Origin: an uncultured SAR86 cluster bacterium
Lineage (GTDB): Bacteria > Pseudomonadota > Gammaproteobacteria > Magnimaribacterales > AG-339-G14
Direction: 5' to 3'
Length of the DNA stretch: 64,000 nucleotides
Assembly (NCBI GenBank): GCA_902525735.1
Contig: CABZIF010000002.1
Span: forward strand, 5,072 to 69,071
The notes beneath the pieces were generated by a model. The model was not told the DNA's origin. It saw only the letters and a program-made list of their open reading frames with translations, and ran no database searches. Positions 12,746 to 29,236 of this stretch are shown here, one piece after another. Made by a program: the position numbers and the translations under genes. How positions within the stretch are numbered: position 1 is the stretch's first letter; each line of letters opens with the position of its first letter.

Positions 12746-13432
12746 ATGAACAATTCTTTAATTTTTGGATCAACTGGATTTATAGGAACTAAAGTTGTAT
12801 CTCATCTAAAAAACTTTGAGGGTTCAACTATTACGATTAGCAGAAAAAAGAATCCAGATTTTGGAAGTAACGTAGACCAAATAATTGTTGAAGATTTTAA
12901 TTTGACAAATATTGATCTTCCTAAAATAGATAACGTTTTTATCTGTTTGGGGACAAAACTCAGGGCCTGGGAGCTGATTTTCATGAGCAAAGAAAAAAAA
13001 GATATTTTTATTAAAACTGATCTTGATCTTATTATTTACGCTGCAAAGAAAGCTAAAGCTTCTGGCGCGAAGACTATTTCCTTGGTTTCGGCAGTTGGAG
13101 TCAAAGAGGGATCTTTAAACACTTACATGGATATCAAAGGAAAAGTAGAAAATGAAATAATAAAATTAGAGTTTGAATCAACTAATTTTTTTAGACCAGG
13201 ACATCTTCAAGGAAAAGCTTCTTTTGAAAAATGGGATACAGCCGTAGCAGATTTTTTTTCTAAAATTATGGATGTGTTTTTGGTGGGCCCTTTTACAAAA
13301 TTTAAAAGCATAAAAGGGGACGCAGTGGCTATGGCTATGGTTAACGAAACGCTTAATAGCAAACCAGGAATTAATACTTTTTATTTCAAAGAAATGATCC
13401 AATCATTTATTAGAGCGACTCCTTCTGAATGA
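12746..13432 (+). CDS. NAD(P)H-binding Rossmann-fold oxidoreductase (atypical SDR/HTATIP2-like)
   Basis: 228 aa. N-terminal LIFGSTGFIGTKVV glycine-rich dinucleotide motif. No more specific family is recognisable by eye. Confidence 0.6.
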   Translation: MNNSLIFGSTGFIGTKVVSHLKNFEGSTITISRKKNPDFGSNVDQIIVEDFNLTNIDLPKIDNVFICLGTKLRAWELIFMSKEKKDIFIKTDLDLIIYAAKKAKASGAKTISLVSAVGVKEGSLNTYMDIKGKVENEIIKLEFESTNFFRPGHLQGKASFEKWDTAVADFFSKIMDVFLVGPFTKFKSIKGDAVAMAMVNETLNSKPGINTFYFKEMIQSFIRATPSE

Positions 13433-14406
13433 GACAATTTCCTTCCTGATTCGGGCATCATTACTCCAGGATCCAAAGAATCCATTCTATGCAATAAAAT
13501 CGACTCGTTCGGCTTACCTGGAACAATAGAAAACTTCATACCCTCGCTAGCTCTTCCTGCTGCAACTGGTTTTTTATAAATTCCTATTTTTCTGTCTTCG
13601 GATTCAGTTAAATTTAAATTCAATCCAGTCGTATCAGCTGAGCCACCAGGCATATGACAATGACCACAATTGATATCTAAATATGCTCTAGCTTTTGCAG
13701 TAAGCGGGGCAGCGTCATCTGACCAATTAACTATTAAATCGAGTGGAACATGGTCCTCGACAATTTCTTTTTCCATCCAAAAAGAAATCTGATTGGCTAA
13801 TTTTTCTTCATATTGGATAGAGAAATTTAGATTTCGAGACTTAGGACCAATTGGCATAATGGCGTTACTTTTTAAATGACATTCTTTGCATTGATTTTGA
13901 TTTGGAACCCTGTAGTTAACGTATTTTTTTTCTCCATCCAAAAAATACATCATGGATGCATGAGTATGACCAGTTACTTTTAAATATGCTTCTGTTTGTT
14001 CCTTATTCCAAACATAGGTGTGTGCTGCCCATCCTGATTCCTGATTAAGTAGCAATCTAGTCTCTAATAACATTCGGCTGCCGTTAAGTGCTTGCGGATA
14101 AGAAAAGGTTTTTATTAGAGCCGAACCTACAGGAAAATCATATACTTCATTGGGAATAAATTTAGCCTTTTTTCCTTTGGGTACGTAAACAAATCTGTGT
14201 TTATCCGCATAATCTGAAAACAAAGCAGAATGAAGAACATATGGTAAAACATTTTCCATAGGTATTTGTGCAACTGCGTCATTAAAAAACTCATAATCGG
14301 AGAGTTTTTTTTCAGGTTTTTTAGAAAGAATAGCCTCTTGATTTACCGAATTCACACAAAGAGAAAATAGAAAAAGAAAAACCAGAAAAGATTTTTTTAA
14401 TTCCAT
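13381..14406 (-). CDS. secreted diheme c-type cytochrome, function unknown
   Basis: 341 aa with an N-terminal signal peptide (MELKKSFLVFLFLFSLCVNS) and exactly two heme-attachment motifs, CKECH and CGHCH. The start overlaps the upstream beta-helix gene by 10 nt. Confidence 0.75.
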   Translation of the reverse strand: MELKKSFLVFLFLFSLCVNSVNQEAILSKKPEKKLSDYEFFNDAVAQIPMENVLPYVLHSALFSDYADKHRFVYVPKGKKAKFIPNEVYDFPVGSALIKTFSYPQALNGSRMLLETRLLLNQESGWAAHTYVWNKEQTEAYLKVTGHTHASMMYFLDGEKKYVNYRVPNQNQCKECHLKSNAIMPIGPKSRNLNFSIQYEEKLANQISFWMEKEIVEDHVPLDLIVNWSDDAAPLTAKARAYLDINCGHCHMPGGSADTTGLNLNLTESEDRKIGIYKKPVAAGRASEGMKFSIVPGKPNESILLHRMDSLDPGVMMPESGRKLSHSEGVALINDWIISLK

Positions 14407-15614
14407 TTTGAGATCGGAGGTAGGTTTGTAATTGATCCTTTAAATTCGCTCTTATCTCTTGATGGAGAATGAAAAAAAGGAAAAGCTACGTACCAAAAGA
14501 CATCCAAATCTAAGAAATTCGTATCACTAGATTCTTCAATGATTATTTTTTCTTTTTCTGGTTGACCAAAAAATAATTCGCTCATAGGCAACAATCCATC
14601 CCAAATAATGTCAGGCATATCACCTTTTGCAATATCCATTAAAATTGGTGAAAGATCTCCTCTAGAAACATCCGGTTTCATGCCAACGTTTGAGTATTGA
14701 TTGTTGTGAATTTGAATTCCTTTTGGAAAAGGATCGTAATTATCATCTCCCGATTCTAAATCTCCGGCTACTACAGCGATATGTACGGTCTGATTATTAT
14801 CAAAACTATTATCAAAAACTTCTACGTTTCTATTTGCCATAATAATAAGGCCAGTTCCACTGGGAACTAATCCAACTATGTTACCTTCTGGAGCGAAATT
14901 ATCGGTATTATTATTAAAAGATTTGTTCTGAAAGACTCTTACGAACTTACCTCCTTGCTTCGGAAGGTTAGGAAGATCAAAAATTAAAATGCCACCAGTA
15001 TTGTTAGTAGCAATATTATTATAAACATCTGCGTAATAAGAATTTTCGATTTCTATTCCAGCTACATTAAATTCGGCCCTACTATTTCTTACTACTATCT
15101 GCTCTGACTGTCCTACATATACTCCTGCATCAGAGGCACCAATAGCAACGCAACCATCAATGAGAACTCCAATAGATTCGACAGGATAAAGCCCATAGGC
15201 ACCATTTTTAGAATCTGGACCATTTGTCCATTCAGTTCTAACCTTGATAAAACTAATATTTTTTACTCCCTTAGATTTAATTGCATCTCCTTTTGCGTTC
15301 TCGATCGCAAAGTCTTGCATAAGAACATTATCTGAGGTCACTAATAAACCCTGAGCCCCTGTTTCTTGATTACTAAAATCTAAAATGGTCTCATACATGC
15401 CTTCTCCGACAATAGAAACATCGCTAACATCAAGAGATAGGCCATGATTAAGCTCATAAGTTCCTTTAGATAAAGAAATTACGTCTCCAGGCTCTGCAAG
15501 AATGAGAGCCTCTTGAATTTCATTTTGCGCATTTGGACTAGGTTGAATTATCCATTCCTCAGAAAAAATATTAGAAATAAAAAAGAAGAAAAGAAAAAGC
15601 CTAATAAATTTCAT
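14397..15614 (-). CDS. secreted parallel beta-helix repeat protein (NosD/pectate-lyase-fold), function unknown
   Basis: 405 aa with a signal peptide (MKFIRLFLFFFFISNIFS). It has successive PbH1-type turns (GAYGLYPVES.., GASDAGVYVGQSEQIVVRNS, NVAGIEIENSYYADVYNN, NNTGGILIFDL). Confidence 0.75.
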   Translation of the reverse strand: MKFIRLFLFFFFISNIFSEEWIIQPSPNAQNEIQEALILAEPGDVISLSKGTYELNHGLSLDVSDVSIVGEGMYETILDFSNQETGAQGLLVTSDNVLMQDFAIENAKGDAIKSKGVKNISFIKVRTEWTNGPDSKNGAYGLYPVESIGVLIDGCVAIGASDAGVYVGQSEQIVVRNSRAEFNVAGIEIENSYYADVYNNIATNNTGGILIFDLPNLPKQGGKFVRVFQNKSFNNNTDNFAPEGNIVGLVPSGTGLIIMANRNVEVFDNSFDNNQTVHIAVVAGDLESGDDNYDPFPKGIQIHNNQYSNVGMKPDVSRGDLSPILMDIAKGDMPDIIWDGLLPMSELFFGQPEKEKIIIEESSDTNFLDLDVFWYVAFPFFHSPSRDKSEFKGSITNLPPISKWN

Positions 15615-15651: not shown

Positions 15652-15680
15652 TTGAAAGATACAATGAGAATGATTATCAT
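15652..15680 (+). promoter_or_regulatory. sigma70-type promoter for fbpABC (TTGAAA-17 nt-TATCAT)
   Basis: -35 TTGAAA at 15652-15657, 17-nt spacer, -10 TATCAT at 15675-15680, about 30 nt upstream of the fbpA ATG. The Fur box overlaps the spacer and -10. Confidence 0.5.
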
Positions 15681-15684
15681 TCTT
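15666..15684. promoter_or_regulatory. Fur box in the divergent beta-helix/cytochrome and fbpABC intergenic region
   Basis: GAGAATGATTATCATTCTT matches the 19-bp consensus GATAATGATAATCATTATC at 15 of 19 positions (hand count). Confidence 0.65.
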
Positions 15685-15710: not shown

Positions 15711-16730
15711 ATGAAGATCAAATTAACTATTTTTTTATTTTTTATAGTAACCGAAGTTAGTTTTGCCTCGGAAGTTAATGTTTATACTTCGAGACATTAT
15801 GATACTGATGAAAACTTATATGATATTTTTACCGAAGAAACAGGTATTAAAGTGAATATAATTACCGCAAAAGGTAACGCCTTGATAGAAAAAATAAAAG
15901 CAGAAGATTCCAATACACTAGCCGATGTTTTTATTACCGTAGATGCAGGAAATTTATGGAAACTTCAAAAGGAAGGTTTTTTCCAAAGCATCGAATCAAC
16001 TAAAATTAAAGATACAGTTCCAAAAAGACTCAGAGGTCCAAATGATGAGTGGGTAGGGTTGGCAAAGAGGTCTAGGGTTATTTTTTATAATCCTGATAAA
16101 GTTTCAAGCGTCGAATTAGACAATCTTTCTTACGAGAATCTCTCAGATTCTAAATGGAAAGGTAGAGTAGCTATAAGAAGCTCAAACAATTTATATAATC
16201 AATCTCTAGTTGCATCTTTAATAGCCCATCACGGAATAGAAAAAACAGAAAAATGGGCTAAAGGCTTTGTTAATAATTTTGCAAGAAAACCTCAAGGCAA
16301 TGATAGGGCTCAAATAATAGCGGTAGCAAATGGGGAAGCAGATATTGCCATAGCAAATAGTTACTACATTGGATTAATGTTGTCTGGTGAAAAAGGAGAA
16401 GCTCAAAAAAAAGCGGCGATGAAAGTTGGTCTACATTTTCCCAATCAAAGTGGACGAGGTACACACATTAATATTAGTGGAGCTGGAATAATTAAGTATT
16501 CAAAAAATAAAGAAAACGCAGAAAAATTTATTGAATTTCTTCTTTCAAAAAAAGCACAAACACACATAATTAACAATACTTATGAATATCCGATTTTAGA
16601 AAACGTTAAGCCTAATAAAAATATTTTAATTTTTGGCGAAGACTTTAGAGAGGATAGTCTTTCTGTAACAAATTATGGAAAATTTAATCCAGAGGCTGTC
16701 AAGCTTATGGATAGAGTAGGGTGGCAATAA
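15711..16730 (+). CDS. fbpA: Fe(3+) ABC transporter periplasmic substrate-binding protein
   Basis: 339 aa with a signal peptide. The N-terminus ...VNVYTSRHYDTDENLYDIFTEETGIKVN... is typical of the FbpA/AfuA/FutA family. It is followed by the permease and ATPase. Confidence 0.85.
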   Translation: MKIKLTIFLFFIVTEVSFASEVNVYTSRHYDTDENLYDIFTEETGIKVNIITAKGNALIEKIKAEDSNTLADVFITVDAGNLWKLQKEGFFQSIESTKIKDTVPKRLRGPNDEWVGLAKRSRVIFYNPDKVSSVELDNLSYENLSDSKWKGRVAIRSSNNLYNQSLVASLIAHHGIEKTEKWAKGFVNNFARKPQGNDRAQIIAVANGEADIAIANSYYIGLMLSGEKGEAQKKAAMKVGLHFPNQSGRGTHINISGAGIIKYSKNKENAEKFIEFLLSKKAQTHIINNTYEYPILENVKPNKNILIFGEDFREDSLSVTNYGKFNPEAVKLMDRVGWQ

Positions 16731-16778
16731 ATTCATTAATTAGTTTTTTCTTATTGATTTAAAGATTAATATTTATTT

Positions 16779-18401
16779 GTGTTTTACAAAGCTAAATTAT
16801 TAAGTCCTTGGACTTTATTGCCATTATTGATCTTTTGTTTATTTGCAAGCCCAGTTCTCATTGTTTTAGCTAGTCTATTCGGAGAATATTCCGATAATTG
16901 GATTCACCTTTACAATTATGTTCTTGGTGATTATGTATACAATTCTTTTTTATTGATTATTGGCGTCTCATCTATTTCTCTTTTTTTAGGCATTGGAACG
17001 GCTTGGTTGACGTCAAATTTCAGTTTTTTTGGAAAAAATTTTTTTGATTGGGCATTAATCTTACCTTTAGCAGTTCCTCCTTATATTCTTGCTTACACAT
17101 TTACAGGTTTGTTTGATTCTTATGGAACTGCAAACAATTTAATTAGAGAGATTTTTTTACTCAACTCTGAATATATTTTTTTTCCTAATGTAAGAAACAT
17201 TTATGGGGCAATAATTGTTTTTTCTTTTACTTTATATCCTTACATTTATTTAGCGACAAGAATTGCTTTTATAAATCAATCAAGATCATTGAGAGAAGTG
17301 GGGGAGACCCTTGGCTTTAGCAAATTTGGAGTCTTCTTTAAGCTCGTTTTACCGATGATTAGACCAGCGATTATAGGGGGATTAATGCTAGTCATCATGG
17401 AAACTTTATCTGATTTTGGAGCAGTAGAACATTTTGCTATTCAGACTTTTACAACTGGTATTTTTAGAACTTGGTACGGGATGTATGATTTACAAACTGC
17501 AATGCAACTATCTTCATTGCTATTGATTTTTATTACTTTTTTCTTGGTCCTAGAGAGATATTCTAGAAACAATATTTCTTATACCTCCGGATCGCCTACT
17601 TATGGAAAAATTGAGAATAAACCATTAACTGGAGGAAAAAATATCTTGGCTTTTTTATTTTGTCTTACACCGCTATCAATAGGGTTTATATTACCAATAT
17701 CCGAACTAACAAATTGGGCTTTAAACTACAAGTTAGATTTTTTCGAGGCAAACTTTATCAAAAATTCTTTTAATACTATTTATTTAGCTTTATTAGCAGC
17801 AGTATTTTGTTCTTTTGTTGCTCTGATTATTAATTTTTCTGGACGGATCCAAAGAAGTAAATTCTTTGGTTTCTTAAGCTCTACTCTTGCATTGGGCTAT
17901 GCATTGCCGGGCATCATATTAGCTATTGGTATTATGCAACTATTTATTTTTCTAGATAATAATTTAAGTTTTTTAAATTTTGTTTTTACTGGCTCTGTCT
18001 TGGGCCTATTGGTTGCTTATGTAATCAAAGCTTATGCTATGTCAAATACATCTATTGAGTCAGGTTATATTAGGATAAGTCCTTATATGGAAGATGTCGC
18101 TAAAACCTTAAGAGCGTCTAATTTTAAAATACTTACACGAATACATTTGCCACTTTTAAAAACAAGTTTCTTAACCAGCATAGTTTTGGTAATTTCAGAA
18201 GTCATCAAAGAGCTTCCTGCAACTTTAATTCTTAGACCATTTAATTTTGATACTCTTGCAGTATCAACTTATATTTATGCTTCTGAAGAAAGAATGTATG
18301 AAGCTGCAGCGCCAGCAGTTGCAATTGTTCTCGTAGGATTAATACCAATTTATTTTTTAACTAAAACTATAAGATCTTCAAGACCAGGAAAAGAAAATTA
18401 A
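16779..18401 (+). CDS. fbpB: Fe(3+) ABC transporter permease (duplicated 6-TM type)
   Basis: 540 aa polytopic protein with two BPD-transporter halves. GTG start. Confidence 0.85.
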   Translation: MFYKAKLLSPWTLLPLLIFCLFASPVLIVLASLFGEYSDNWIHLYNYVLGDYVYNSFLLIIGVSSISLFLGIGTAWLTSNFSFFGKNFFDWALILPLAVPPYILAYTFTGLFDSYGTANNLIREIFLLNSEYIFFPNVRNIYGAIIVFSFTLYPYIYLATRIAFINQSRSLREVGETLGFSKFGVFFKLVLPMIRPAIIGGLMLVIMETLSDFGAVEHFAIQTFTTGIFRTWYGMYDLQTAMQLSSLLLIFITFFLVLERYSRNNISYTSGSPTYGKIENKPLTGGKNILAFLFCLTPLSIGFILPISELTNWALNYKLDFFEANFIKNSFNTIYLALLAAVFCSFVALIINFSGRIQRSKFFGFLSSTLALGYALPGIILAIGIMQLFIFLDNNLSFLNFVFTGSVLGLLVAYVIKAYAMSNTSIESGYIRISPYMEDVAKTLRASNFKILTRIHLPLLKTSFLTSIVLVISEVIKELPATLILRPFNFDTLAVSTYIYASEERMYEAAAPAVAIVLVGLIPIYFLTKTIRSSRPGKEN

Positions 18402-18403
18402 CT

Positions 18404-19060
18404 ATGTTGAAAGTAGAAAACGTATTTCATTCTTATAATCAAAAAGAAGATATTTTAAAAGGTATAAATCTTGATGTTTCAAAAGGAGAAATAATATCTA
18501 TTTTGGGAGGTTCAGGATCGGGCAAAACCTCTTTTTTAAGAATCCTCTCTGGTTTGGAAAGACCGCATAAAGGAAAAATAGAGATTGATGATGTTTTGAT
18601 TGTTTCTGAAAATTATTTTTTGCCGACTTATAAAAGAAACATCGGCCTTGTTATTCAAGAAAAGGGGCTATTTCCTCACTTAAATATTTTAAAAAATGTT
18701 TGTTTCGGCTTATTAGGCTCAAAAGAAGAAAAAAATAAAGTTGCTATTGATTTATTAACTACCTTTAAGGTTAATCAATATCAAGATCAATATCCAAATA
18801 GCCTATCAGGCGGCGAACAGCAAAGAGTTGCCATAGCGAGAGCATTAGCACCGAAGCCTAAGGTATTGTTAATGGACGAGCCATTTGGATCTTTAGATAG
18901 GGCTTTAAGAGAAAGCCTAAGAGAAGAAACCAAGCTTTTCTTAAAAAGTAACCGAATTACTTGCTTAATGGTTACTCATGATGAAGAAGATGCTCTATCT
19001 ATGAGTGATCAAATATTTCTCTTAAAGGACGGAAAACTAAATATTCATCAGCAATTGTAA
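18404..19060 (+). CDS. fbpC: ABC transporter ATP-binding protein (FbpC-like, NBD only)
   Basis: 218 aa. Walker A GGSGSGKTS, signature LSGGEQQRVAIARAL, Walker B LLMDEPF, H-loop VTHD. It has no C-terminal regulatory/TOBE-type domain. Confidence 0.85.
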   Translation: MLKVENVFHSYNQKEDILKGINLDVSKGEIISILGGSGSGKTSFLRILSGLERPHKGKIEIDDVLIVSENYFLPTYKRNIGLVIQEKGLFPHLNILKNVCFGLLGSKEEKNKVAIDLLTTFKVNQYQDQYPNSLSGGEQQRVAIARALAPKPKVLLMDEPFGSLDRALRESLREETKLFLKSNRITCLMVTHDEEDALSMSDQIFLLKDGKLNIHQQL

Positions 19061-19102: not shown

Positions 19103-19131
19103 TTTACAAAGTTAATGATAATCATTATCAT
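19103..19131 (+). promoter_or_regulatory. sigma70-type promoter for the TonB-dependent receptor (TTTACA-17 nt-TATCAT)
   Basis: -35 TTTACA at 19103-19108, 17-nt spacer, -10 TATCAT at 19126-19131. A GAGG Shine-Dalgarno precedes the ATG at 19163. The architecture matches the fbpA promoter. Confidence 0.55.
19111..19129. promoter_or_regulatory. Fur box (proximal, near-perfect)
   Basis: GTTAATGATAATCATTATC matches the consensus GATAATGATAATCATTATC at 18 of 19 positions. It overlaps the spacer and -10. Confidence 0.8.
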
Positions 19132-19162
19132 CTGTTCGTAAATAAGCATTGAGGTAATAATT

Positions 19163-21298
19163 ATGCAAAAACTTTTATATGGAATTTTGATTTCTGCTGG
19201 ATTGATTTCTAGCAGTTTATTATTCGCACAAGATACTGAAGAATTGGAAGTAAAAGGTAAGGTTTTACAATCTGATCAAGTTACTGCTTTTAAAACTCCA
19301 GTTCCTGTTCTTAACGTTCCTCAATCCGTCTCAATAATTACTGATGACGAGATCATGATGAAAGGTTATAGAGAGCTTGGCGATATAGTTCGTTACACGC
19401 CAGGAGTAAACACAACTCAAGGAGAAGGCCATAGGGATGCCATTGTTTTCAGAGGAGTCAGATCAACTGCGAACTTTTATTTAGATGGAACTAGAGATGA
19501 CGTTCAATACTACAGATCTTTATACAATATTGAACAAGTTGAGGTAATCAAAGGAGCAAACGCTCTTTTATTTGGTCGAGATGCCAGAGGTGGCTTGATT
19601 AATCGTGTGACAAAAAAACCAGTGGTTGGTGAGTCATTTAGATCTATTAATGCTGGTATGGACAGTTTCGGTGCGTACGATATTGCATTCGATTCTAATA
19701 TGGATATTTCCGATGATAGTGCAATCAGATTAATGCTTCATAGCGATACTCTGGAAAACCACAGGGATCATTTTGATGGAGATAGAGTTGGTGCAAACAT
19801 AGTTTATAGGACTGAAATGGACGCTGATTCAACCTTAGATTTATCTTATGAGTTGGTCGATCATGAAAGATTTATTGATCGAGGTATACCTACCAGTTTG
19901 ACTTCTTACTATCCTGACTCAAGATTTGATGACGTAGTATTTGGTTCGCCCGGAATAAATCTGCAAACAACTGAAGCAGATATTTTTAAGGCAAAATTTA
20001 CTCGAGAATTATCAGACACTAGTCGTATTATTTTTTCTTTAACTGCAAATGATTTTGAAAAGATGTATAAAAATTTATACGTATCTAGCATTAATGCAGC
20101 GGGAACTACTATTGATGCAGATGGTTATCAGGACGATACGGAAAGGGAAAGCACAATCTTTAATATTGATTGGGTAAACGAAATAGAGATGGGTGATACA
20201 ACTCATACTATTCTTGCTGGTTTAGAGATTCTTGATACCGAAAACAAAAACCAACGTTATTACAAGTGTTTTTCATCACATGATGGAACAGCTGCTTTAG
20301 ACAATAACGCTGATTGTGTAGCTGGGGCAACCAACAGAAAAGGTCAAAAAGAAACTTTTACAGTTTCTAGACCTATGGACTTCACTAAAAATAGTGATGG
20401 AGTTGCGAACACTACTCATTACGATCAAGCTGGAACGTTTTATGCTAGAACTGAAACGGATGTAGAGATCACTTCCATTTCACTGCAAGACCAAATCAAC
20501 TTGAACGAAAGTATTTTACTTACCGTAGGTGGAAGATTTGATCAAATGGAGTTGACAGTACGAGATACTAGAACAACTTCTGGAGGAACAACTATAAACG
20601 ATAGAGACATCTTCTCACCAAGAGCAGGAATAACATATAAACCGCAAGAGAACGTTTCTTTATATGCAGCTTATAGCGAAAGTTATTATCCAAAAGCTGG
20701 AGAACAGTATAAGAAACAGTCAGATGCTCAAGCTATAACCGATCCAGATACTTTTGAAAATACTGAGATTGGTTTGAAAATGGAAATCAATCCTAATCTA
20801 GTTTTTACAGCAAACTATTTTGATAGCGAAAATGTAGTTTCTTTACCTGATGGACAAGGTGAAGCAGAAACGGTTAATTTGTCTGTGGATGGATTTGAAT
20901 TAGAGCTAAAAGGTCAGATAAATGAAAAACTTTATGCTGCTTTCGGTTACTCTGATTATGATGGTGAGACATCTCCTGGGACACCTGCGAAAGAGATACC
21001 AGAATCAACTACAACTGGCTGGATCAACTACGATGTATCTGACAGTTTTGGTTATGGTTTAGGTTTTACGAGACAAGGCGAATCTCAAATTAAAGATGGC
21101 GCAGCTTCTGGAGGATTGCTTCCAAGTTACACTAGATGGGACGCAGCAATGTATTGGACTCTTTCAAACGATACATCAGTGCAGTTGAACATTGAAAACT
21201 TAACCAATACTGATTATTACCCTCACGCACATTCAACTCATCAAGCATCAGTTGGAGAGGACATAAATGCGAGGTTGTCTATTAATTACAGTTTCTAA
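19163..21298 (+). CDS. TonB-dependent outer-membrane receptor (siderophore/iron-complex type)
   Basis: 711 aa. Signal peptide, plug domain (VPQSVSIITDDEI..., GEGHRDAIVFRG..., YLDGTRDDVQYYRS, VEVIKGANALLFG), beta-barrel, C-terminal aromatic residue (...LSINYSF). Confidence 0.9.
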   Translation: MQKLLYGILISAGLISSSLLFAQDTEELEVKGKVLQSDQVTAFKTPVPVLNVPQSVSIITDDEIMMKGYRELGDIVRYTPGVNTTQGEGHRDAIVFRGVRSTANFYLDGTRDDVQYYRSLYNIEQVEVIKGANALLFGRDARGGLINRVTKKPVVGESFRSINAGMDSFGAYDIAFDSNMDISDDSAIRLMLHSDTLENHRDHFDGDRVGANIVYRTEMDADSTLDLSYELVDHERFIDRGIPTSLTSYYPDSRFDDVVFGSPGINLQTTEADIFKAKFTRELSDTSRIIFSLTANDFEKMYKNLYVSSINAAGTTIDADGYQDDTERESTIFNIDWVNEIEMGDTTHTILAGLEILDTENKNQRYYKCFSSHDGTAALDNNADCVAGATNRKGQKETFTVSRPMDFTKNSDGVANTTHYDQAGTFYARTETDVEITSISLQDQINLNESILLTVGGRFDQMELTVRDTRTTSGGTTINDRDIFSPRAGITYKPQENVSLYAAYSESYYPKAGEQYKKQSDAQAITDPDTFENTEIGLKMEINPNLVFTANYFDSENVVSLPDGQGEAETVNLSVDGFELELKGQINEKLYAAFGYSDYDGETSPGTPAKEIPESTTTGWINYDVSDSFGYGLGFTRQGESQIKDGAASGGLLPSYTRWDAAMYWTLSNDTSVQLNIENLTNTDYYPHAHSTHQASVGEDINARLSINYSF

Positions 21299-21309
21299 TC
21301 TAGATTTTT

Positions 21310-21352
21310 CTTGAGGAAGTTTTCACTTCCATTTATTAAGAACTTCCTCAAG
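21310..21352 (+). other. perfect 12-bp inverted repeat / RNA hairpin just after the receptor stop codon, with an alternative inner hairpin
   Basis: CTTGAGGAAGTT (21310-21321) pairs with AACTTCCTCAAG (21341-21352). Inside the loop, ACTTCC (21325-21330) can instead pair with GGAAGT (21315-21320). No U-tract follows. Confidence 0.35.
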
Positions 21353-21460
21353 ATTCACCCCTGAGTCTAGGTTATAAATCTAAGCTTAATGAAGTAGAGG
21401 CATTGAGATTAGACAGGGTTCATAGTTGGAGAGCTTTGGACCCTGACTGTAAAAAATTCA

Positions 21461-21494
21461 AAAAAAGTATCTCGCCCATGCGAGATATTTTTTT
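21461..21494. terminator. bidirectional rho-independent terminator shared by the convergent receptor and ALAS genes
   Basis: AAAAAAGT-ATCTCGC-CCAT-GCGAGAT-ATTTTTTT: a 7-bp GC-containing stem with a 4-nt loop, flanked by an A-tract and a T-tract. Confidence 0.75.
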
Positions 21495-21578: not shown

Positions 21579-22829
21579 TTAAAATAAATTAGAAATGTTA
21601 TTAAATTTAGATTTCTCCTTTTTAGATCGTTTGAGATCTAATTTTGACCATACTTGATCTAGTGCACCTACGAAGGTCTGAATATCCTCAGCAGAGTGTT
21701 TTGGTGTAATAGTTACCCTAAATCTTTCATCTCCCTTAGGAACAGTAGGGTAAAAAATTGGTTGGATATAAACACCATGTTCTTCAATAAGTACATTGGC
21801 AGCTTCTTTGCATAATTCAGGATCATAAAGATGAATGGGAACAATGTGACTATCATTTTCAAGAAAAGGAATGCTAGATTCTTTTAAGCCTTGTCTAATT
21901 AAATCAGAATTATTTTTAATATTTTTCCTAAGCAAGTCAGCGCCTTTAGCAAGTTCTATAGCGACCAGACTAGCTGCAGCTATACTAGGATTTGCAGATG
22001 AAGTAAAAATAAAACCTGGAGCAAAACTTCTTATAAAGTCAATGATATCTCTACTGGCAGATACATATCCACCCATTTGCCCAAAAGCTTTCGATAAAGT
22101 GCCGTTAATAATATCGATTTCATCAGAAACGTTTAATTCTGCAGCTATACCTCTTCCTTCGGGCCCATAAAGTCCTACAGAGTGAACTTCATCTAAGTAA
22201 GTAAGAGCATTATATTTCTTAGCGAGAGAGACAATTTGTTTTATAGGTGATCTCAAGCCCTCCATAGAATAAAGAGATTCGAATACAATTATTTTTGGAG
22301 TATTGGCATTAGAAGTCTTTAGAAGTTCCTCAAGGTGATTTGTGTCATTGTGTCTAAACACATGTGTTGGCACATTAGCATTTTTGACTCCCTGTATCAT
22401 TGAAGCGTGATTCAACTCATCCGAATAAACTTCACATCCACTTAATTTTTTACACAGAGTCCAAAGAGTTGATTGGTTTGCTGTATAGGCTGATGGGAAC
22501 AACAAACTTGCTTCTTTTTTGTGAAGCTCTGCAAGGCTTTTCTCCAGATCTGCATGATAAGTTGAAGTGCCCGATATATTTCTAGTTCCTCCAGAACCAG
22601 TACCCAATTCTTTTGTAACCTTTGTAGACTCCATTATTACAACTGGATGTTGACTTAAATTCAAGTAGTCATTACTGCACCAAACTTCGACGGCTCTTTC
22701 GTTACCTTCAAATCTTTCAGTGGCTTTAGGGAAATTCTTTTTGTTTCTATTTATCTCTCTAAACTTTCGATAAAGACCCTGAGATTTTAACGATGTGAGC
22801 TCGTCAGCAAAGAATTTTTTATAGTTCAT
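21579..22829 (-). CDS. hemA: 5-aminolevulinate synthase (C4/Shemin pathway)
   Basis: 416 aa PLP alpha-oxoamine synthase carrying ALAS-specific motifs: [71 protein letters not shown], the catalytic-Lys region [17 protein letters not shown], and DSHIVPI. Confidence 0.9.
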
Positions 22830-22930
22830 TTTGTTCTTAGTAGAGTATATTTTTATCGTATTTAAAACATTATTAGTCTTTTTGTACAGAGAATTTATAA
22901 TTAACTTATTATTTATAATAAAGAGTTATA

Positions 22931-24433
22931 TTGAAGACATTAACGATAATTTCCAGAAGAAGTATATTAGCTCAAATTCAAGCTGAGATTGTGGGCAGAA
23001 GGATTTTAGAATATTTCCCGAAAACAAAAATAAAATATATACAAAAAGATACTATAGGTGATCTAGATTTAGATACACCACTTTATAAAATGCCAGAAAT
23101 AGGTGTTTTCACCGATGATATTAGAAATGAGCTGATCCAAAAAAAAGCCGACTTAGCTGTCCATTCCTGGAAAGATTTGCCAGTCGAGTTGGAAGAAGGA
23201 ACCAAGATTTCTGCAACTATTGAAAGAGCAGATTTGAGAGATATATTAATTTTCAAAAAAAACTCGATTTCAAAGGATGATGTTTCTATATACACTTCCT
23301 CTCCTAGACGCAAAGAGAATCTTTCAAATTTCCTTCCCAAAGCTTTACCATCACAACCCAAAAAAATTAGATTTTTAGATATTCGTGGAAATATCCCAAC
23401 ACGAATAAAAAAATTAATAGGATCTGATGTCGATGGCCTTGTAATGGCAAAAGCAGCGCTAGATAGAATAATAAATGACAACACGACAAAATTTTTGAAA
23501 GAAAAAAAAGAAGTTTTAAATTTTTTTAAAGAATTAAATTGGATGGTCTTACCTTTGTCTGAGAATCCATCAGCTCCAGCTCAAGGTGCCTTAGCAATTG
23601 AATCACGATCAAAAGATGAGGAAACTTTGAAAATATTAAATAAAATTAACAATGAAGAAGTTTTTAAATCAGTAGAAAAAGAAAGAAAAATTCTAAAAAA
23701 ATATGGCGGAGGTTGTCATCAAAAAATTGGAGTGAGTCATCAAATTTTAAAAATGGGAGAGGTATTAAATTTAAAAGGAGAAACAGAGGAAGGAATTAGG
23801 CTTAATGAAAATAGTTTTTTTCCTAAAGCAAAATTTATAGATGAATCTCTTTCAAAAATTATAAGTTTTTATCCTCAAAAGCCAGAAAATTCCTCTTTTT
23901 TTGACCGGGAAATTATTCAAAATTCTTCAAAAGCATTGAAAAATATAACTAATTCAGGAATTTATGTAAGCCGAAGCAATGCGCTTGATAATTTTAGTAA
24001 TATAAAAGATTCTAATACTATCTGGACCAGTGGAATTAAGACGTGGCTATCTTTATCTCGTAAAGGTCTGTGGATAAATGGTTCTTCTGATAGCTTGGGA
24101 GAGATAGAGTCTCCTCCTGAGAACGTTTTAAAAAAAATAAAATGGTACAAAATCTCTCACAATGCTGCACCCAAAGGCGATAAAGAAATTATTCCAACTT
24201 ATAGACTTATAAAAAAAGAACTTCCCAAAGAAATTAAGGATGTGACCCATTTTTATTGGATGAGTTCTAGTTCATTCAAATATGCTGTGAAGAAATATCC
24301 TGAGATTAAAAATAGAAGTCATTCTTGTGGCCTCGGAAAAACATTTGATGAAATTAGCGCAATCATACCTGGAAAAGTTTATCCTTATCTCAAATATCAA
24401 GACTGGCTAGAAAAAATCAAGAAAGCAAAGTAA
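22931..24433 (+). CDS. hemC: hydroxymethylbilane synthase with C-terminal uroporphyrinogen-III synthase-like extension (putative HemC-HemD fusion)
   Basis: 500 aa with a TTG start. Residues 1 to about 290 are HMBS (DLAVHSWKDLP, GNIPTRIKKL, APAQGALAIESR, GGGCHQKIGVS). The roughly 200-aa tail has HemD-like features (WTSGIKTWLSL..G, FYWMSSSSFKYAV, SCGLGKTFDEI). No separate hemD is in the cluster. Confidence 0.75.
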   Translation: MKTLTIISRRSILAQIQAEIVGRRILEYFPKTKIKYIQKDTIGDLDLDTPLYKMPEIGVFTDDIRNELIQKKADLAVHSWKDLPVELEEGTKISATIERADLRDILIFKKNSISKDDVSIYTSSPRRKENLSNFLPKALPSQPKKIRFLDIRGNIPTRIKKLIGSDVDGLVMAKAALDRIINDNTTKFLKEKKEVLNFFKELNWMVLPLSENPSAPAQGALAIESRSKDEETLKILNKINNEEVFKSVEKERKILKKYGGGCHQKIGVSHQILKMGEVLNLKGETEEGIRLNENSFFPKAKFIDESLSKIISFYPQKPENSSFFDREIIQNSSKALKNITNSGIYVSRSNALDNFSNIKDSNTIWTSGIKTWLSLSRKGLWINGSSDSLGEIESPPENVLKKIKWYKISHNAAPKGDKEIIPTYRLIKKELPKEIKDVTHFYWMSSSSFKYAVKKYPEIKNRSHSCGLGKTFDEISAIIPGKVYPYLKYQDWLEKIKKAK

Positions 24434-24457
24434 CATCACATTCCAAATTTAAGAATA

Positions 24458-25450
24458 ATGAATTTTAATAGGAAATTTCCTCTTACGAGACTGAGAAGAA
24501 CTAGATCTAAACCAGGATTAAGATCCATGGTAGCCGAAGTAAACCTATCAGTAGACGACTTAATCCAACCAATTTTTATAAAAGAAAATTTAACAGGTAC
24601 AGAAAATATTGATTCGATGCCTGAAATTAAAAGATTTGGATTAGATGTTTTAAATAAAGAAATAGACGAATTAGTCTCTTTAGGTATTAAATCAGTAGCT
24701 GTTTTTCCTGTAATAGAGGAATCAAAAAAAGATGCTGCTGGTTTAGAAGCTTTAAATGAAAACAACTTTCTTACGAAAGCAATCAAACAAATCAAAGAGG
24801 CATTTCCCGAACTTATTGTTATCGTTGATGTAGCTTTAGATCCATATACTACACATGGACATGACGGCGTATTGGACAGTAACGACGATGTAGATAATGA
24901 TGCTTCTTTACTCACTCTAAAAGAACAAGCTTTGGTACTAGCCAAAGCAGGAGCAGACGTTATTGCGCCTTCGGATATGATGGATGGGAGAATCAAGTTA
25001 ATCAGGGAGGCCTTGGAAGACAATAACTATAAAAATATCGTTATATTGTCTTATGCCGCAAAATATAGTTCAAAATTTTATGGTCCATTTAAGGATGCAG
25101 TAGAATCTGCAAAATTCTTTGGAAATAAGACGAAAGATACCTATCAAATGGCTGTCAGCAACATAAATGAAGCTTTGCAGGAAGTAGCAATGGATATTGA
25201 AGAGGGTGCAGATATAGTCATGGTAAAACCAGGTTTGCCTTTTTTGGATGTGCTAAAGGCTGTCAAAGATGAATTCAAAATGCCAACCTTCGTTTACCAA
25301 GTAAGCGGTGAATATTCAATGTTGAAAGCCGCCATTGAAAGGGGCTGGCTTTCAAAAGAAGTGATGAAAGAATCTTTAATTTCCTTTAAAAGAGCTGGCG
25401 CTGACTGCATCTTAACTTATTCAGCAAAGGAAATAGCAAGAGAACTATAA
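24458..25450 (+). CDS. hemB: porphobilinogen synthase (ALA dehydratase), Asp-rich (zinc-independent) type
   Basis: 330 aa. RLRRTR..., active-site lysine regions (MVKPG). The metal site reads DVALDPYTTHGHDG instead of the Cys-rich Zn site. Confidence 0.95.
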   Translation: MNFNRKFPLTRLRRTRSKPGLRSMVAEVNLSVDDLIQPIFIKENLTGTENIDSMPEIKRFGLDVLNKEIDELVSLGIKSVAVFPVIEESKKDAAGLEALNENNFLTKAIKQIKEAFPELIVIVDVALDPYTTHGHDGVLDSNDDVDNDASLLTLKEQALVLAKAGADVIAPSDMMDGRIKLIREALEDNNYKNIVILSYAAKYSSKFYGPFKDAVESAKFFGNKTKDTYQMAVSNINEALQEVAMDIEEGADIVMVKPGLPFLDVLKAVKDEFKMPTFVYQVSGEYSMLKAAIERGWLSKEVMKESLISFKRAGADCILTYSAKEIAREL

Positions 25451-25456
25451 TAAATA

Positions 25457-26479
25457 ATGCCAAACGATAGGTTTTTAAATGCATTGCAAGGTAAGCCACA
25501 AAAAATTCCTCCAATTTGGCTTATGAGACAAGCAGGGAGATATCATTCTCACTATCAAAATTTAAAAAAATCTTTTACATTTGAAGAGCTCTGCAAATCA
25601 CCAAAACTTGCGGCAGAGACTGCCATGGGACCAATTGAAGATTTTGATTTTGATGTTGCCATATTGTTTAGCGACATTCTATTTCCATTAGAATCATTAG
25701 GGATGAATCTAAAATATGATCCAGGACCTAAATTTTCTGAGTTATTAACCTCAAAAAATTATAAAAAATTATTTAATCAGCGTCTTCCCGCTCAATCACT
25801 AAGCTTTCAGGCCGAAGCTATAGAAAGAACAATTGAAAAACTCCCAAAAGATAAGTCCATGATTGGTTTCATAGGCGGACCATGGACATTAATTTCTTAT
25901 GCGATGGGAAAAAATAAAGAAAATTCAATTGATAAACTTTCAGAATTCGACTGGAATATTATTAATGATCAAATAATTCCTTTATTAAGAGAAAATATTT
26001 CAATCCAAATAAAAGCAGGAGCTGAAATGGTCATGATTTTTGATTCGGCAGCTAATCAATTGAATAGATCAGACTTTGCCAAATATATAAAAGTAGTCTT
26101 TGAAGAAATTGTAATAAATTTTAAAAAAAAGGTTGGTTATTATGCTAAAGACGGAGTTGATTACTCCTTGATAGAAAAAATAAAAAAAGAGTCCTTTATC
26201 CCCTTAGCAGGATTAGGAATAGACTCCAATTACTCATTAGGAAATTTTTTCTCTAAATCTAGAGAAGGTTTTATTCAAGGAAATTTTGACGAAAAGGTTA
26301 TGACCCAACCACAGAATATTATGGAAAAAAACTTAGATAAGTTTATAGAAGAAACTTCCTCTTTTTCAATGGAGCAAAGAGCTGGTTGGGTTTGCGGTTT
26401 AGGACATGGAGTTCTCAAGACCACACCTGAAGATAATGTAAGAATTTTCGTAAAAAAAATTAGAGAAGCATTCGCATGA
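25457..26479 (+). CDS. hemE: uroporphyrinogen decarboxylase
   Basis: 340 aa with the PIWLMRQAGRY signature. It lies 6 nt after hemB. Confidence 0.93.
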   Translation: MPNDRFLNALQGKPQKIPPIWLMRQAGRYHSHYQNLKKSFTFEELCKSPKLAAETAMGPIEDFDFDVAILFSDILFPLESLGMNLKYDPGPKFSELLTSKNYKKLFNQRLPAQSLSFQAEAIERTIEKLPKDKSMIGFIGGPWTLISYAMGKNKENSIDKLSEFDWNIINDQIIPLLRENISIQIKAGAEMVMIFDSAANQLNRSDFAKYIKVVFEEIVINFKKKVGYYAKDGVDYSLIEKIKKESFIPLAGLGIDSNYSLGNFFSKSREGFIQGNFDEKVMTQPQNIMEKNLDKFIEETSSFSMEQRAGWVCGLGHGVLKTTPEDNVRIFVKKIREAFA

Positions 26480-27483
26480 GTTTTCTTGGTGAACAGAATT
26501 TTGAACACGATTCCTCTGAGAAAATTGGAGTATTATTATGCAATTTAGGAACTCCAGATAGTTTTAAAACAGGCGATGTTAGAAAATTCTTGAAAGAATT
26601 TTTATCTGATGGAAGAGTAGTAGAAATTCCGAAATTTATTTGGTGGTTTATTTTAAACGGAATAATTCTTATTTTTAGGCCCAAAAAATCTGCATTACTT
26701 TATGAATCTGTTTGGACAAAGGAGGGCTCTCCTTTATTAGTTTATTCCGAAAAATTAGTAAGTAAACTTTTAAAAGAGTTGCCAAACAATTATGAAATTG
26801 AATTAGCAATGAGGTATGGAAATCCCAGCATAGAGGAAGGTCTTATAGCTTTAAAAAAGAAAAATTGTAGAAACTTAATTGTGTTACCTTTATTTCCCCA
26901 ATATTCTGGAACTACTACTGGAAGTGTGTTTGACGAAGTTTCAAGAGTTCTTTCAAAGTGGCGATGGGTTCCAAATCTAAATTTTATAAATAGTTATCAT
27001 GATGACGAAGGTTATATCATTGCTTTATCAGATTCTATTAAAGAAAAATTGGAAAACGAATCCCCTCAAAAAATTGTTTTTTCTTACCACGGAATACCGA
27101 AAAGAAATTTTATCAAGGGTGATCCATACCATTGCCTATGTAAAAAAACCACACGCCTGGTGGCTGAAAGATTAGGATTAAATGAAGATAAATACATTAC
27201 AACCTTTCAATCTAGATTCGGCAGAGCAGAGTGGTTGAAGCCTTACACTAGCGAAACTATGGAAAATTTACCGTCAGAAAATATAAAGAATATTTTGGTT
27301 GTGGCTCCAGGGTTCAGTGTCGATTGTTTAGAGACCATTGAGGAGATAGACGATGAAAACAAAGAAATTTTTATTGATGCCGGCGGAGAAAAGTTTGGTT
27401 ACATTCCATGCTTAAATGATTCGCAACAACATATTAAATTCATTAAAGACTTTCTTCAAAAACAAACTTATATCTGGAAGTAA
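26476..27483 (+). CDS. hemH: ferrochelatase
   Basis: 335 aa. GVLLCNLGTPDS, LPLFPQYSGTTTGS, FSYHGIP, QSRFG...WLKPYT. ATGA overlap with hemE. Confidence 0.93.
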   Translation: MSFLGEQNFEHDSSEKIGVLLCNLGTPDSFKTGDVRKFLKEFLSDGRVVEIPKFIWWFILNGIILIFRPKKSALLYESVWTKEGSPLLVYSEKLVSKLLKELPNNYEIELAMRYGNPSIEEGLIALKKKNCRNLIVLPLFPQYSGTTTGSVFDEVSRVLSKWRWVPNLNFINSYHDDEGYIIALSDSIKEKLENESPQKIVFSYHGIPKRNFIKGDPYHCLCKKTTRLVAERLGLNEDKYITTFQSRFGRAEWLKPYTSETMENLPSENIKNILVVAPGFSVDCLETIEEIDDENKEIFIDAGGEKFGYIPCLNDSQQHIKFIKDFLQKQTYIWK

Positions 27484-28298
27484 TGGAAATAGACAAAAAA
27501 AAAGAAGAAGCTTCAGCCTGGTTTAGTTCACTTCGAGATAAATTTTGTTTAGCTTTCGAAGAAATAGATCCTGGTAGAAAATTTGAAAGAAAACTTTGGT
27601 CTCATAAAGGCTCAGGCGGAGGCGAAATAAGCATAATGCAAGGCAATATTTTTGAAAAAGTTGGAGTTAACATTTCAACTGTATCAGGAAAATTTTCAGA
27701 AGATTATAGATCACAAATTAAAGGTACAGAAAAATCTGCTAATTATTGGGCATCTGGCATTAGTTTGGTTGCTCACATGGCATCCCCAAAAATACCAGCA
27801 TTTCATTTTAATACTCGATTCTTGGTAACTGAAGACTCTTGGTTTGGTGGAGGAGCTGATATGACGCCGACTTTTGAAAATAAAAATGATACAGAAACTT
27901 TCCATAGAAAAATGAAAGAATCTTGCGATCCCACTGATAAAAATTACTACGAAGAATTTAAAAAAAATTGTGATGAATATTTCTATCTGCCTCATAGAGA
28001 TGAAGCAAGAGGAGTGGGAGGTATTTTCTTTGATCATTTAAATACGAATGACTGGGAAAAAGATTTTAATTTTATTAAAGAAGTTGGCAAAAAAACATTT
28101 GAGGCTATTTCTGAAATAGTAAATCTTCACAAAAATAAAGAATGGAATAATGAAGAGAAAGAAAAACAGCTTATAAAAAGAGGAAGATACGTAGAATTTA
28201 ATTTGATTTGGGATAGAGGAACGCTTTTTGGGTTAAAAACTGGAGGTTCCACTGAAGCAATACTTATGTCGATGCCACCTTCAGCAAAATGGAAATGA
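27483..28298 (+). CDS. hemF: oxygen-dependent coproporphyrinogen-III oxidase
   Basis: 271 aa. GGGEISIMQG.IFEK.GVN.S, HMASPKIPAFHFNTRF, WFGGGADMTP, RGVGGIFFD, GRYVEFNL..DRGT.FGL. TAATG overlap with hemH. Confidence 0.9.
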   Translation: MEIDKKKEEASAWFSSLRDKFCLAFEEIDPGRKFERKLWSHKGSGGGEISIMQGNIFEKVGVNISTVSGKFSEDYRSQIKGTEKSANYWASGISLVAHMASPKIPAFHFNTRFLVTEDSWFGGGADMTPTFENKNDTETFHRKMKESCDPTDKNYYEEFKKNCDEYFYLPHRDEARGVGGIFFDHLNTNDWEKDFNFIKEVGKKTFEAISEIVNLHKNKEWNNEEKEKQLIKRGRYVEFNLIWDRGTLFGLKTGGSTEAILMSMPPSAKWK

Positions 28299-28299
28299 A

Positions 28300-28824
28300 G
28301 TGAAAAAAAGTCTAATTATTTATTCATCTGTAGATGGGCATACTGAAAAAATTTCCAAAAAAATTTCTGAAAACCTTGTCCACTCACATGAAGTAGACTT
28401 AATTTCATTAGACGAAGTTAAAAGTAAAAATTTAAATGATTTTGATCAGATTGTTATCGGAGCTTCCATAAGGTATGGAAATTACCGTAAAGAATTATTT
28501 AAGTTCGTTGATGAAAATGTTGGGGTCTTGTCCCTAAAAGAAAATGCTTTTTTTAGTGTAAATGTCGTAGCCAGAAAAGAAGAGAAAAATAACAAAGACA
28601 CGAATCCTTACATTTCAAAGTTTTTGAAAAATACAAAGTGGAGTCCAAAAATAATTGATGTTTTTGCTGGAGTAGTCGATTATCCATCTTATAAATATTT
28701 TGATAAGTTCATGATTCGCTTAATAATGTTTATTACCAAAGGACCTACTAATACTAAAAATAGATACGAGTTTACCGACTGGAACAGAGTAAAGAAATTT
28801 TCGAGTTTGTTAGATAATCAATAA
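28300..28824 (+). CDS. hemG: menaquinone-dependent protoporphyrinogen IX dehydrogenase (flavodoxin-like)
   Basis: 174 aa with a GTG start. It is collinear with E. coli HemG, including VIGASIRYG.Y, F.SVN.VARK and the long-loop region YPSYKYFDKFMIRLIM. Confidence 0.88.
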   Translation: MKKSLIIYSSVDGHTEKISKKISENLVHSHEVDLISLDEVKSKNLNDFDQIVIGASIRYGNYRKELFKFVDENVGVLSLKENAFFSVNVVARKEEKNNKDTNPYISKFLKNTKWSPKIIDVFAGVVDYPSYKYFDKFMIRLIMFITKGPTNTKNRYEFTDWNRVKKFSSLLDNQ

Positions 28825-28825
28825 A

Positions 28826-29236
28826 ATGTTAGTTTTAAAAATAATTTGGTGGTCTTTATTCATTGGAAGCGCCATCGCTTCTATAGGTTCTTTTACTAAC
28901 GAAAAAGCTAATTCCATGGGGCGATTAAAAAATTATGCTGGGATATTTTTCTTAACGATATTCGTAATTACTTATTTTCTAGGAACTTTTTTTAATTTTA
29001 TTCCTGAAATTTTGACTATTTTATATGATTTATTTTATTGGATTTTTACATTTTCTGCCTTTTTACAAATCTTATGGTGGTATATTTTTGTTGGGAGTTT
29101 TTTTGTCAGTATGAGTTTATTTCTTTCATTGATTTCAAGAGAAGAAGGTCCAAAAGAAAGATTTGGTCTAAGTTTTGTATCTGGTTTTATTTGCATTCTG
29201 ACTTTTTTGTTAGGAATGTATTTAGGATACGTTTAG
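28826..29236 (+). CDS. hypothetical 4-TM membrane protein with internal 2x(2-TM) duplication
   Basis: 136 aa starting 1 nt after the hemG stop. The two halves share LKIIWWSLFIGS...F and LQILWWYIFVGS...F. No family is recognised. Confidence 0.55.
   Translation: MLVLKIIWWSLFIGSAIASIGSFTNEKANSMGRLKNYAGIFFLTIFVITYFLGTFFNFIPEILTILYDLFYWIFTFSAFLQILWWYIFVGSFFVSMSLFLSLISREEGPKERFGLSFVSGFICILTFLLGMYLGYV

Follow-up and report, generated by a model that had tools for sequence, protein, structure and literature searches.

The present analysis concerns a gene for 5-aminolevulinate synthase (ALAS), the enzyme of the Shemin (C4) route to 5-aminolevulinate (ALA), and its surroundings in a stretch of 64,000 nucleotides from an uncultured SAR86 cluster bacterium (contig CABZIF010000002.1; the window hereafter means this whole stretch). 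An earlier note on this DNA, made from the letters only, had described an alpha-oxoamine synthase of 416 amino acids (aa) at positions 21579-22829; the open reading frame (ORF) is indeed there, on the minus strand and with an ATG start. What the earlier note missed is that the gene stands divergently to a six-gene operon, hemC-hemB-hemE-hemH-hemF-hemG (Table 1). All eight steps leading from glycine and succinyl-CoA to protoheme are encoded within 21579-28824, i.e., in a single 7.2-kb locus, because a cryptic domain, assigned to HemD by its modelled structure, is fused to HemC. The enzyme is thus an ordinary ALAS in an extraordinary place, where it heads a complete and partly cryptic heme cluster.

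The family of the enzyme follows from profile scores, the ranking of PDB sequence matches and pocket residues, all of which agree with the identification as ALAS, and not as KBL or BioF, that was made in the earlier note. In an NCBIfam profile search, the ALAS equivalog TIGR01821 reached 548.4 bits against a cutoff of 338.55 and was matched over model positions 1-401 of 402, while the models of the sister alpha-oxoamine synthases stayed under their cutoffs (BioF 324, <426; KBL 320, <460; SPT 253, <640). Likewise, the five top PDB matches are ALAS structures, including 7X98, Rhodobacter capsulatus 2BWN, human ALAS2 and yeast Hem1 (E 1e-118 to 1e-109), and KBL and BioF form the next tier from 1e-66. 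All ALAS motifs quoted previously are present, namely WCSNDYL (residues 50-56), GGTRNISGT (80-88) and two more at 136-147 and 243-255, the last of which contains the Schiff-base lysine at position 247. For the active site, residues were mapped onto the R. capsulatus numbering and their conservation was followed over 23-24 clade sequences. The Schiff-base K247 for pyridoxal 5'-phosphate (PLP) and the PLP ligands H141, D213, H216, T244 and S188 do not vary within the SAR86 clade, and neither do R21, N53, T82, N84, I85, T362 and R371 of the glycine/succinyl-CoA pocket (R. capsulatus Arg21, Asn54, Thr83, Asn85, Ile86, Thr365 and Arg374). Moreover, positions 83/87, which were experimentally shown to separate ALAS (Thr83/Ser87) from AlmA (Ser/Gly) (PMC9356726), are of the ALAS type, Thr/Ser, in 24 of 24 clade sequences. 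CP heme-regulatory motifs were not found in the SAR86 ALAS sequence. The gene product is a PLP-dependent 5-aminolevulinate synthase (EC 2.3.1.37) with an intact active site, and it is predicted to convert glycine and succinyl-CoA to ALA.

A second point of interest is hidden in the first gene of the operon. Of its 500-aa product, only residues 4-282 are matched by the HemC model TIGR00212 (198.6 bits, cutoff 164). The C-terminal ~215 aa gave no match to Pfam, NCBIfam or PDB profiles (the PDB profile search returned noise), and none of the 120 database homologs listed for the protein shows a HEM4 domain, the HemC domain being the only one recognized. AlphaFold2 modelled the full protein with a predicted local distance difference test score (pLDDT) of 90.9 and the C-terminal domain alone with 86.2. 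A full-length Foldseek search was dominated by HemC and thus uninformative on the C-terminal domain; with the isolated domain, the 12 best PDB matches were all uroporphyrinogen-III synthases (E 4e-6 to 2e-3, probability 1.0, template modelling score 0.47-0.61). They derive from Pseudomonas (the best match), Thermus, human and Helicobacter and are followed by a gap, the next structure appearing at E >= 0.08. The modelled domain has the two-domain alpha/beta fold of HemD and falls outside the HEM4 sequence family. Its position after HemC corresponds to the usual hemC-hemD order, and no other hemD candidate lies within the heme cluster. We conclude from the models that the protein is most probably a HemC-HemD fusion, the HemD half of which would have diverged beyond sequence recognition. 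Public annotations label the whole fusion as hydroxymethylbilane synthase only.

Table 1. Features of the heme cluster and its flanks (positions in the window unless another locus is named).
Feature	Position	Strand	Remarks
Fur box and TonB-dependent receptor gene	19111-21298 (Fur box 19111-19129)	+	Fur box 18/19 to consensus, best in window; gene convergent with ALAS
Terminator-like hairpin, bidirectional, separating ALAS from the convergent TonB receptor gene	21468-21487		8-pair stem, T-runs on both sides
ALAS, 5-aminolevulinate synthase (Shemin/C4 route)	21579-22829	-	416 aa, ATG start
Divergent intergenic (promoter) region ALAS/hemCD	22830-22930		101 bp, AT-rich
HemC with putative HemD domain	22931-24433	+	500 aa; hydroxymethylbilane synthase ~residues 1-290, cofactor Cys262; cryptic HemD ~299-500 (window ~23825-24430)
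hemB, porphobilinogen synthase	24458-25450	+	NF006762 459 bits (cutoff 297)
hemE, divergent uroporphyrinogen decarboxylase	25457-26479	+	Pfam URO-D 248.7 bits, full length; TIGR01464 235 bits (<303)
hemH, ferrochelatase	26476-27483	+	TIGR00109 323.6 bits (cutoff 124.6)
hemF, oxygen-dependent coproporphyrinogen oxidase	27483-28298	+	NF003727 374.2 bits (cutoff 297)
hemG, menaquinone-dependent protoporphyrinogen dehydrogenase (PgdH1)	28300-28824	+	NF008316 201.9 bits (cutoff 142)
hemJ in the hemG slot	L002 4130-4549; L021 5087-5512	-	hemG in the window at 28300-28824

The cluster is embedded in a gammaproteobacterial chromosome. The gammaproteobacterial gene order noticed before is real, with dnaG-rpoD followed by a tRNA with the anticodon CAU, and with zapA-6S RNA-ygfA; further backbone of this type in the window comprises pepP-ubiH, trpGDC, purD-purH, rsmE-gshB-ruvX, coaBC-dut, nadD-rsfS-mrdA-rodA, ilvA, rpiA and lnt. 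The gammaproteobacterial host assumed at that time proved to be SAR86 (order Magnimaribacterales). The 6S RNA between zapA and ygfA is a full-length match at 32300-32471 (+) with 42.4 bits (E 6e-6), just under the Rfam gathering threshold of 46.4, so that default Rfam annotation would miss the element.

Scanning one genome per GTDB species revealed ALAS orthologs of 75-95% identity in ~22 SAR86 records, which originate from single-cell genomes, long-read metagenome-assembled genomes (MAGs) and, for the isolate HIMB1674, a closed chromosome (CP151794.1). The next relatives are two MAGs (loci L018 and L019) at 62%, and then three alphaproteobacterial MAGs at 51-53%. More than 20 SAR86 species, with HIMB1674 among them, share the divergent ALAS/hem arrangement, and L019 has a reduced version of it; the alphaproteobacterial ALAS loci, three of three examined, have none of the SAR86 cluster neighbours. 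As a side observation, L018 and L019, which represent a deeper-branching lineage, keep the ALAS/TonB receptor/hemCD-hemE-hemF arrangement with hemB not in the cluster. Among the proteins of the cluster, ALAS shows the highest conservation: its mean pairwise identity is 83.6% and 68% of its columns are invariant, compared to 64-78% and 36-54%, respectively, in the other heme enzymes. These values indicate strong purifying selection.

The rest of the cluster is more variable in its gene content. Several ALAS-type SAR86 lineages, including HIMB1674, carry hemJ in the hemG slot after hemF (TIGR00701 145-146 bits, cutoff 138); the hemG/hemJ variation exchanges one protoporphyrinogen oxidase for a non-homologous one without a change of place in the cluster. 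In the HIMB1674 group (L015, L016 and L021), hemH is not found between hemE and hemF and must lie elsewhere in the genome. Besides, ~2.2 kb are inserted between ubiH and hemG in L005, L010, L011 and L014. Directly after hemG, the window holds a 136-aa ORF (28826-29236, +) with no family match and faint hints of a membrane protein, which was seen only here and in the closest relative, L001.

The distribution of the two ALA routes was taken from Supplementary Table 1 of Kim et al. (2021; bioRxiv 10.1101/2021.01.11.426183), which lists KofamScan completeness for the modules "C5 (upper)" and "C4 (upper)" per GTDB species representative. The observed C5 values of 0, 0.5 and 1 suggest a module of two steps. 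Of o__SAR86, 32 genomes are tabulated, and their GTDB families can be equated with the named SAR86 lineages according to Ramfelt et al. (2024; PMC11582366). ALAS is recorded for three of the four genomes of AG-339-G14 (RedeBAC7D11) and for one of the four genomes of f__SAR86 (Magnimaribacteraceae, including HIMB1674), and a complete C5 module for none of either family. Conversely, no ALAS appears among the 14 genomes of D2472 (Suzuki) and the 10 of TMED112 (CHAB-I-7), 11 and 8 of which, respectively, have a complete C5 module. Taken by pairs of families, ALAS occurs in 4/8 versus 0/24 genomes (Fisher p = 0.002) and complete C5 in 0/8 versus 19/24 (Fisher p = 0.0001), with the C5 module in the two ALAS families reaching only 0 or 0.5. 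An intact pathway of glutamyl-tRNA reductase (GluTR) and HemL together with ALAS, which the earlier note had named as evidence that would speak against its view, occurs in none of the 32 genomes. E. coli queries for GluTR and HemL gave no match in the 0.55 Mb of DNA of the compared loci, which is a weak test given that the loci cover the same region. The ALAS genomes of Kim et al. include MED701 and AG-422-E19, which correspond to our loci L007 and L008. ALAS is therefore not a SAR86-wide trait and marks one of two deep branches: according to Ramfelt et al. (PMC11582366), Magnimaribacteraceae and RedeBAC7D11 go back to one origin, and Suzuki and CHAB-I-7 to another. Of global SAR86, ~1/10 belongs to Magnimaribacteraceae and ~1/4 to RedeBAC7D11 (PMC11582366).

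The same table bears on the cryptic HemD domain. All four ALAS genomes score 0.67 on the common module, which can be read as an undetected hemD and hence as an independent match to the proposed fusion. Scans based on KEGG orthologs (KO) would score hemD as missing in ALAS-type genomes because the HemD domain is undetectable by sequence. In addition, the sub-cutoff score of HemE (235 versus 303 bits) may explain the value of 0.75 that KO scans give for the lower pathway in ALAS-type SAR86 genomes.

Several lines of evidence concern the age of the gene. The comparison of codon usage and GC content with the neighbouring genes, which the earlier note had proposed, found ALAS to be native, with a GC of 0.354, a GC3 of 0.248 (z = 0.75) and rank 31 of 53 genes in codon distance. 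In an exhaustive search of 1.84 billion representative proteins, no full-length match exceeded ~49% identity, and ALAS of bacterial and of eukaryotic length were about equally distant from the SAR86 enzyme; with the GTDB genomes included, no sequence outside the clade of SAR86 and L018/L019 exceeds 53% identity. In a neighbour-joining tree of 129 taxa with 200 bootstraps, this clade obtained 100% support, and its internal split into a type comprising the window and RedeBAC7D11 and a type comprising HIMB1674 and Magnimaribacteraceae (95-100% support) mirrors the species tree. No close viral relative was detected in a scan of IMG/VR. Native composition, the fully supported clade and this lack of a close viral relative point to a transfer that is likely ancient and to a gene that would have been inherited vertically since. 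The earlier note had left the choice between a lateral acquisition, possibly with replacement of the C5 pathway, and a lineage-specific trait. Both appear to apply together, with the restriction that the lineage is one deep branch only and that the transfer is an ancient one.

A single replacement of C5 by ALAS on the stem of RedeBAC7D11 and Magnimaribacteraceae is the simplest reading of these data. The common ancestor of both families would have acquired ALAS once, in ancient times, and the enzyme would have replaced the glutamyl-tRNA (C5) route which is still used by Suzuki and CHAB-I-7. In the present-day cells, ALAS would make ALA as the first step and the divergent hemCD-B-E-H-F-G operon would supply every later protoporphyrin-dependent step, so that the 7.2-kb locus may be regarded as a self-contained heme factory. 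The resulting pathway would be a mosaic, combining a first step typical of Alphaproteobacteria with a HemG typical of Gammaproteobacteria (HemJ in sister lineages). As a whole, this explanation, comprising a functional ALAS, a complete heme locus and a single old acquisition that replaced C5 in one SAR86 branch, is considered highly probable; for ALAS as the sole ALA source, for the direction of the transfer and for the single origin, we infer what the distribution and the tree suggest. Some observations weigh against it. Completeness of the tabulated genomes is only 50-79%, and the C5 score of 0.5 in the majority of the ALAS-type genomes means that a match to one of the two C5 orthologs, or to a paralog, persists. 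Where the Rhodobacter enzyme has Lys156, a peripheral contact to CoA, the clade has Thr, Cys or Tyr, the sole replacement among the residues compared. Bootstrap support at the deeper ALAS nodes of the neighbour-joining tree is ~0 and places no donor lineage, and the window's own family would be of the RedeBAC7D11 type as judged from ALAS similarity only.

The first two of these points lead to an alternative in which ALAS is an auxiliary second ALA source beside a complete and functional C5 pathway in the same cell, the second C5 gene being unsampled in incomplete genomes. This is regarded as rather improbable, as complete C5 was found in none of the eight genomes compared to 19 of 24 in sister families of similar completeness, and as one alphaproteobacterial row of the table (Rubrimonas) likewise scores 0.5, which hints that the value arises from a paralog match. 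Furthermore, an accessory role hardly agrees with the conservation of ALAS, which exceeds that of all other cluster proteins, with its occurrence in every ALAS-type locus or with streamlined genomes of 1.3-1.7 Mb. It might also be assumed that a foreign donor contributed the whole heme cluster as one block, and not ALAS alone, and that this block took the place of native heme genes which had been scattered. The contiguity of all eight steps would fit such an event, as would the KO scans that miss hemD and one lower-pathway step in ALAS-type genomes where sister families score 1.0, the HemE score below the NCBIfam cutoff and the atypical character of several cluster enzymes. Nevertheless, HemG is reported from enteric or gammaproteobacterial lineages only (PMC13564367), the HemD domain finds its best matches by structure in Pseudomonas HemD, and the three alphaproteobacterial ALAS loci lack these neighbours; the in-place variation of hemG/hemJ and of hemH implies ongoing local remodelling instead of a fixed island. 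A block import is accordingly considered unlikely.

Two further alternatives question the enzyme or its host. Cyclizing ALAS, which serve the formation of C5N units, and AlmA are the only well-described ALAS-like enzymes outside the Alphaproteobacteria (PMC4525017, PMC9356726), which could make the protein a relative from secondary metabolism, if not a paralog of the KBL, BioF or SPT type. However, the ALAS equivalog alone passes its cutoff, the 83/87 pair is nowhere in the clade of the AlmA type, and the neighbours are heme enzymes and not amide synthetases or ligases, by which this very improbable identity is effectively refuted. ALAS genes encoded by phages exist in aquatic viromes (PMC11480375), so that a recent phage-borne or otherwise mobile acquisition might be considered, as might an artefact by mis-binning of an alphaproteobacterial contig. 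Against the latter, ALAS shares its contig with the gammaproteobacterial housekeeping backbone and was recovered from single cells, from long-read MAGs and from the closed chromosome of an isolate; against the former stand the native composition, the absence of a close IMG/VR relative and the absence of mobile-element genes nearby. Both have a negligible probability and are refuted by the multi-source occurrence, the conserved synteny and the native composition.

Compared to known systems, the SAR86 enzyme resembles the alphaproteobacterial ALAS (HemA/HemT; R. capsulatus 2BWN) in length, in the fold-type I PLP architecture and in the predicted reaction, and it shares with the R. capsulatus enzyme the Schiff-base Lys as well as His142, Asp214, His217, Arg21, Thr83, Asn85, Ile86, Thr365 and Arg374. 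It differs by an identity of just 46% to the R. capsulatus enzyme, by the replaced Lys156 and by its gammaproteobacterial host; moreover, the three alphaproteobacterial loci have no heme neighbours, whereas the SAR86 gene stands in a complete heme cluster. The core is equally similar to mitochondrial ALAS1/ALAS2 and yeast Hem1 (E ~1e-116 to 1e-109, representatives 44-49% identical), although the N-terminal targeting/heme-regulatory region, the CP motifs and the eukaryote-type C-terminal extension are lacking in SAR86. The cyclizing ALAS of Streptomyces and AlmA are likewise examples of the ALAS fold outside the Alphaproteobacteria, but their hosts keep C5 for heme and use the enzyme for antibiotics, while the SAR86 enzyme has an ALAS-type pocket and a context of primary heme synthesis. 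The phage-encoded vAlaS also represents ALAS outside the usual hosts, with the proposed benefits of one enzyme instead of two and of Glu-tRNA being freed for translation (PMC11480375); unlike vAlaS, the SAR86 gene is chromosomal, apparently ancient and vertically inherited, and has no close viral relative. With the gammaproteobacterial pathway of the E. coli type (GluTR/HemL, hemCDXY), steps 2-8 share the same enzyme families, including HemG, and the adjacency of hemC and hemD. In contrast, the first step in ALAS-type SAR86 is ALAS, hemC and hemD appear fused, and all genes are found at one locus. In E. coli, hemB, hemE, hemF, hemG and hemH are scattered in the genome.

Regarding regulation, no Fur box was found in the intergenic region between ALAS and hemCD, and these genes do not classify as Fur-regulated. 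Promoter-like matches in this region were no more frequent than in shuffled controls, TTATAA-N12-TTATAA elements are kept in some families and not in the whole clade, and Rfam revealed no known RNA element near ALAS. Iron-related genes lie on the other side of ALAS. The TonB-dependent receptor possesses Plug and barrel domains, matches the siderophore-receptor subfamily with 212.9 bits and is the neighbour of ALAS in most loci across the clade, also in L018 and L019, which branch deeply. The second-best Fur box of the window (15666-15684, 16/19) is situated directly upstream of an fbp-like ABC importer (15711-19060). The heme cluster is directly flanked by a block for iron uptake, made up of the Fur-box ABC importer and the TonB receptor. 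Divergently to the importer, a gene pair at 13381-15614 (-) encodes a diheme cytochrome c of the SO2930 family (TIGR03806) and a parallel beta-helix protein (TIGR03805). The spacer between the receptor gene and ALAS, which includes 21340-21460, is 280 bp, which is long for a compact genome; in addition to the terminator it contains a second hairpin (21315-21330), and it has no Rfam match.

According to recent accounts, Alphaproteobacteria are the sole bacteria with ALAS (Chem Rev 2026, PMC13564367; Nat Commun 2024, PMC11480375), the cyclizing ALAS of actinomycetes and AlmA being exceptions in secondary metabolism (PMC4525017, PMC9356726). How and why the Shemin route displaced C5 is described as unknown (PMC9356726). 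In the searchable literature, no paper linking SAR86 with ALA or heme biosynthesis was found, 25 of 33 papers on SAR86 and heme being judged by title; Dupont 2012, Ramfelt 2024 and a 2025 preprint on Magnimaribacterales are silent on heme, and Kim et al. tabulate the SAR86 route data and never mention SAR86 in the text. NCBI and JGI already annotate these proteins as 5-aminolevulinate synthase. The gene call is thus not new, and it is its significance that has gone unremarked. Likewise, no other bacterial lineage outside the Alphaproteobacteria with sole use of the Shemin route was found reported in the searchable literature.

The occurrence of ALAS in SAR86 contradicts the textbook rule that restricts this enzyme to the Alphaproteobacteria. 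Accordingly, ALAS reads from marine samples cannot be assumed to be alphaproteobacterial, and in marine metagenomes the completeness of the heme pathway would be under-called in ALAS-type SAR86 lineages because their HemD is undetectable by sequence. Through the Fur-box iron-uptake genes beside the heme locus, the synthesis of heme is linked to the acquisition of iron in a bacterium that is abundant in the ocean. Moreover, SAR86 would provide a second, independent replacement of C5 by the Shemin route, for which sister families with C5 and a cultured strain, HIMB1674, exist; the selective drivers could therefore be compared directly. Candidate drivers are the need for one gene instead of two, the release of Glu-tRNA for translation and the coupling of heme to the supply from glycine and the tricarboxylic acid cycle in a streamlined oligotroph. 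It is probable that RedeBAC7D11 and Magnimaribacteraceae, ~1/3 of SAR86 cells, rely solely on the Shemin route for their primary tetrapyrroles, outside the Alphaproteobacteria. If so, they would record a single, datable switch from C5 to C4, the 'before' state of which survives in the sister families, and would offer an independent natural replicate of an event that has been thought unique, at the origin of Alphaproteobacteria and mitochondria.

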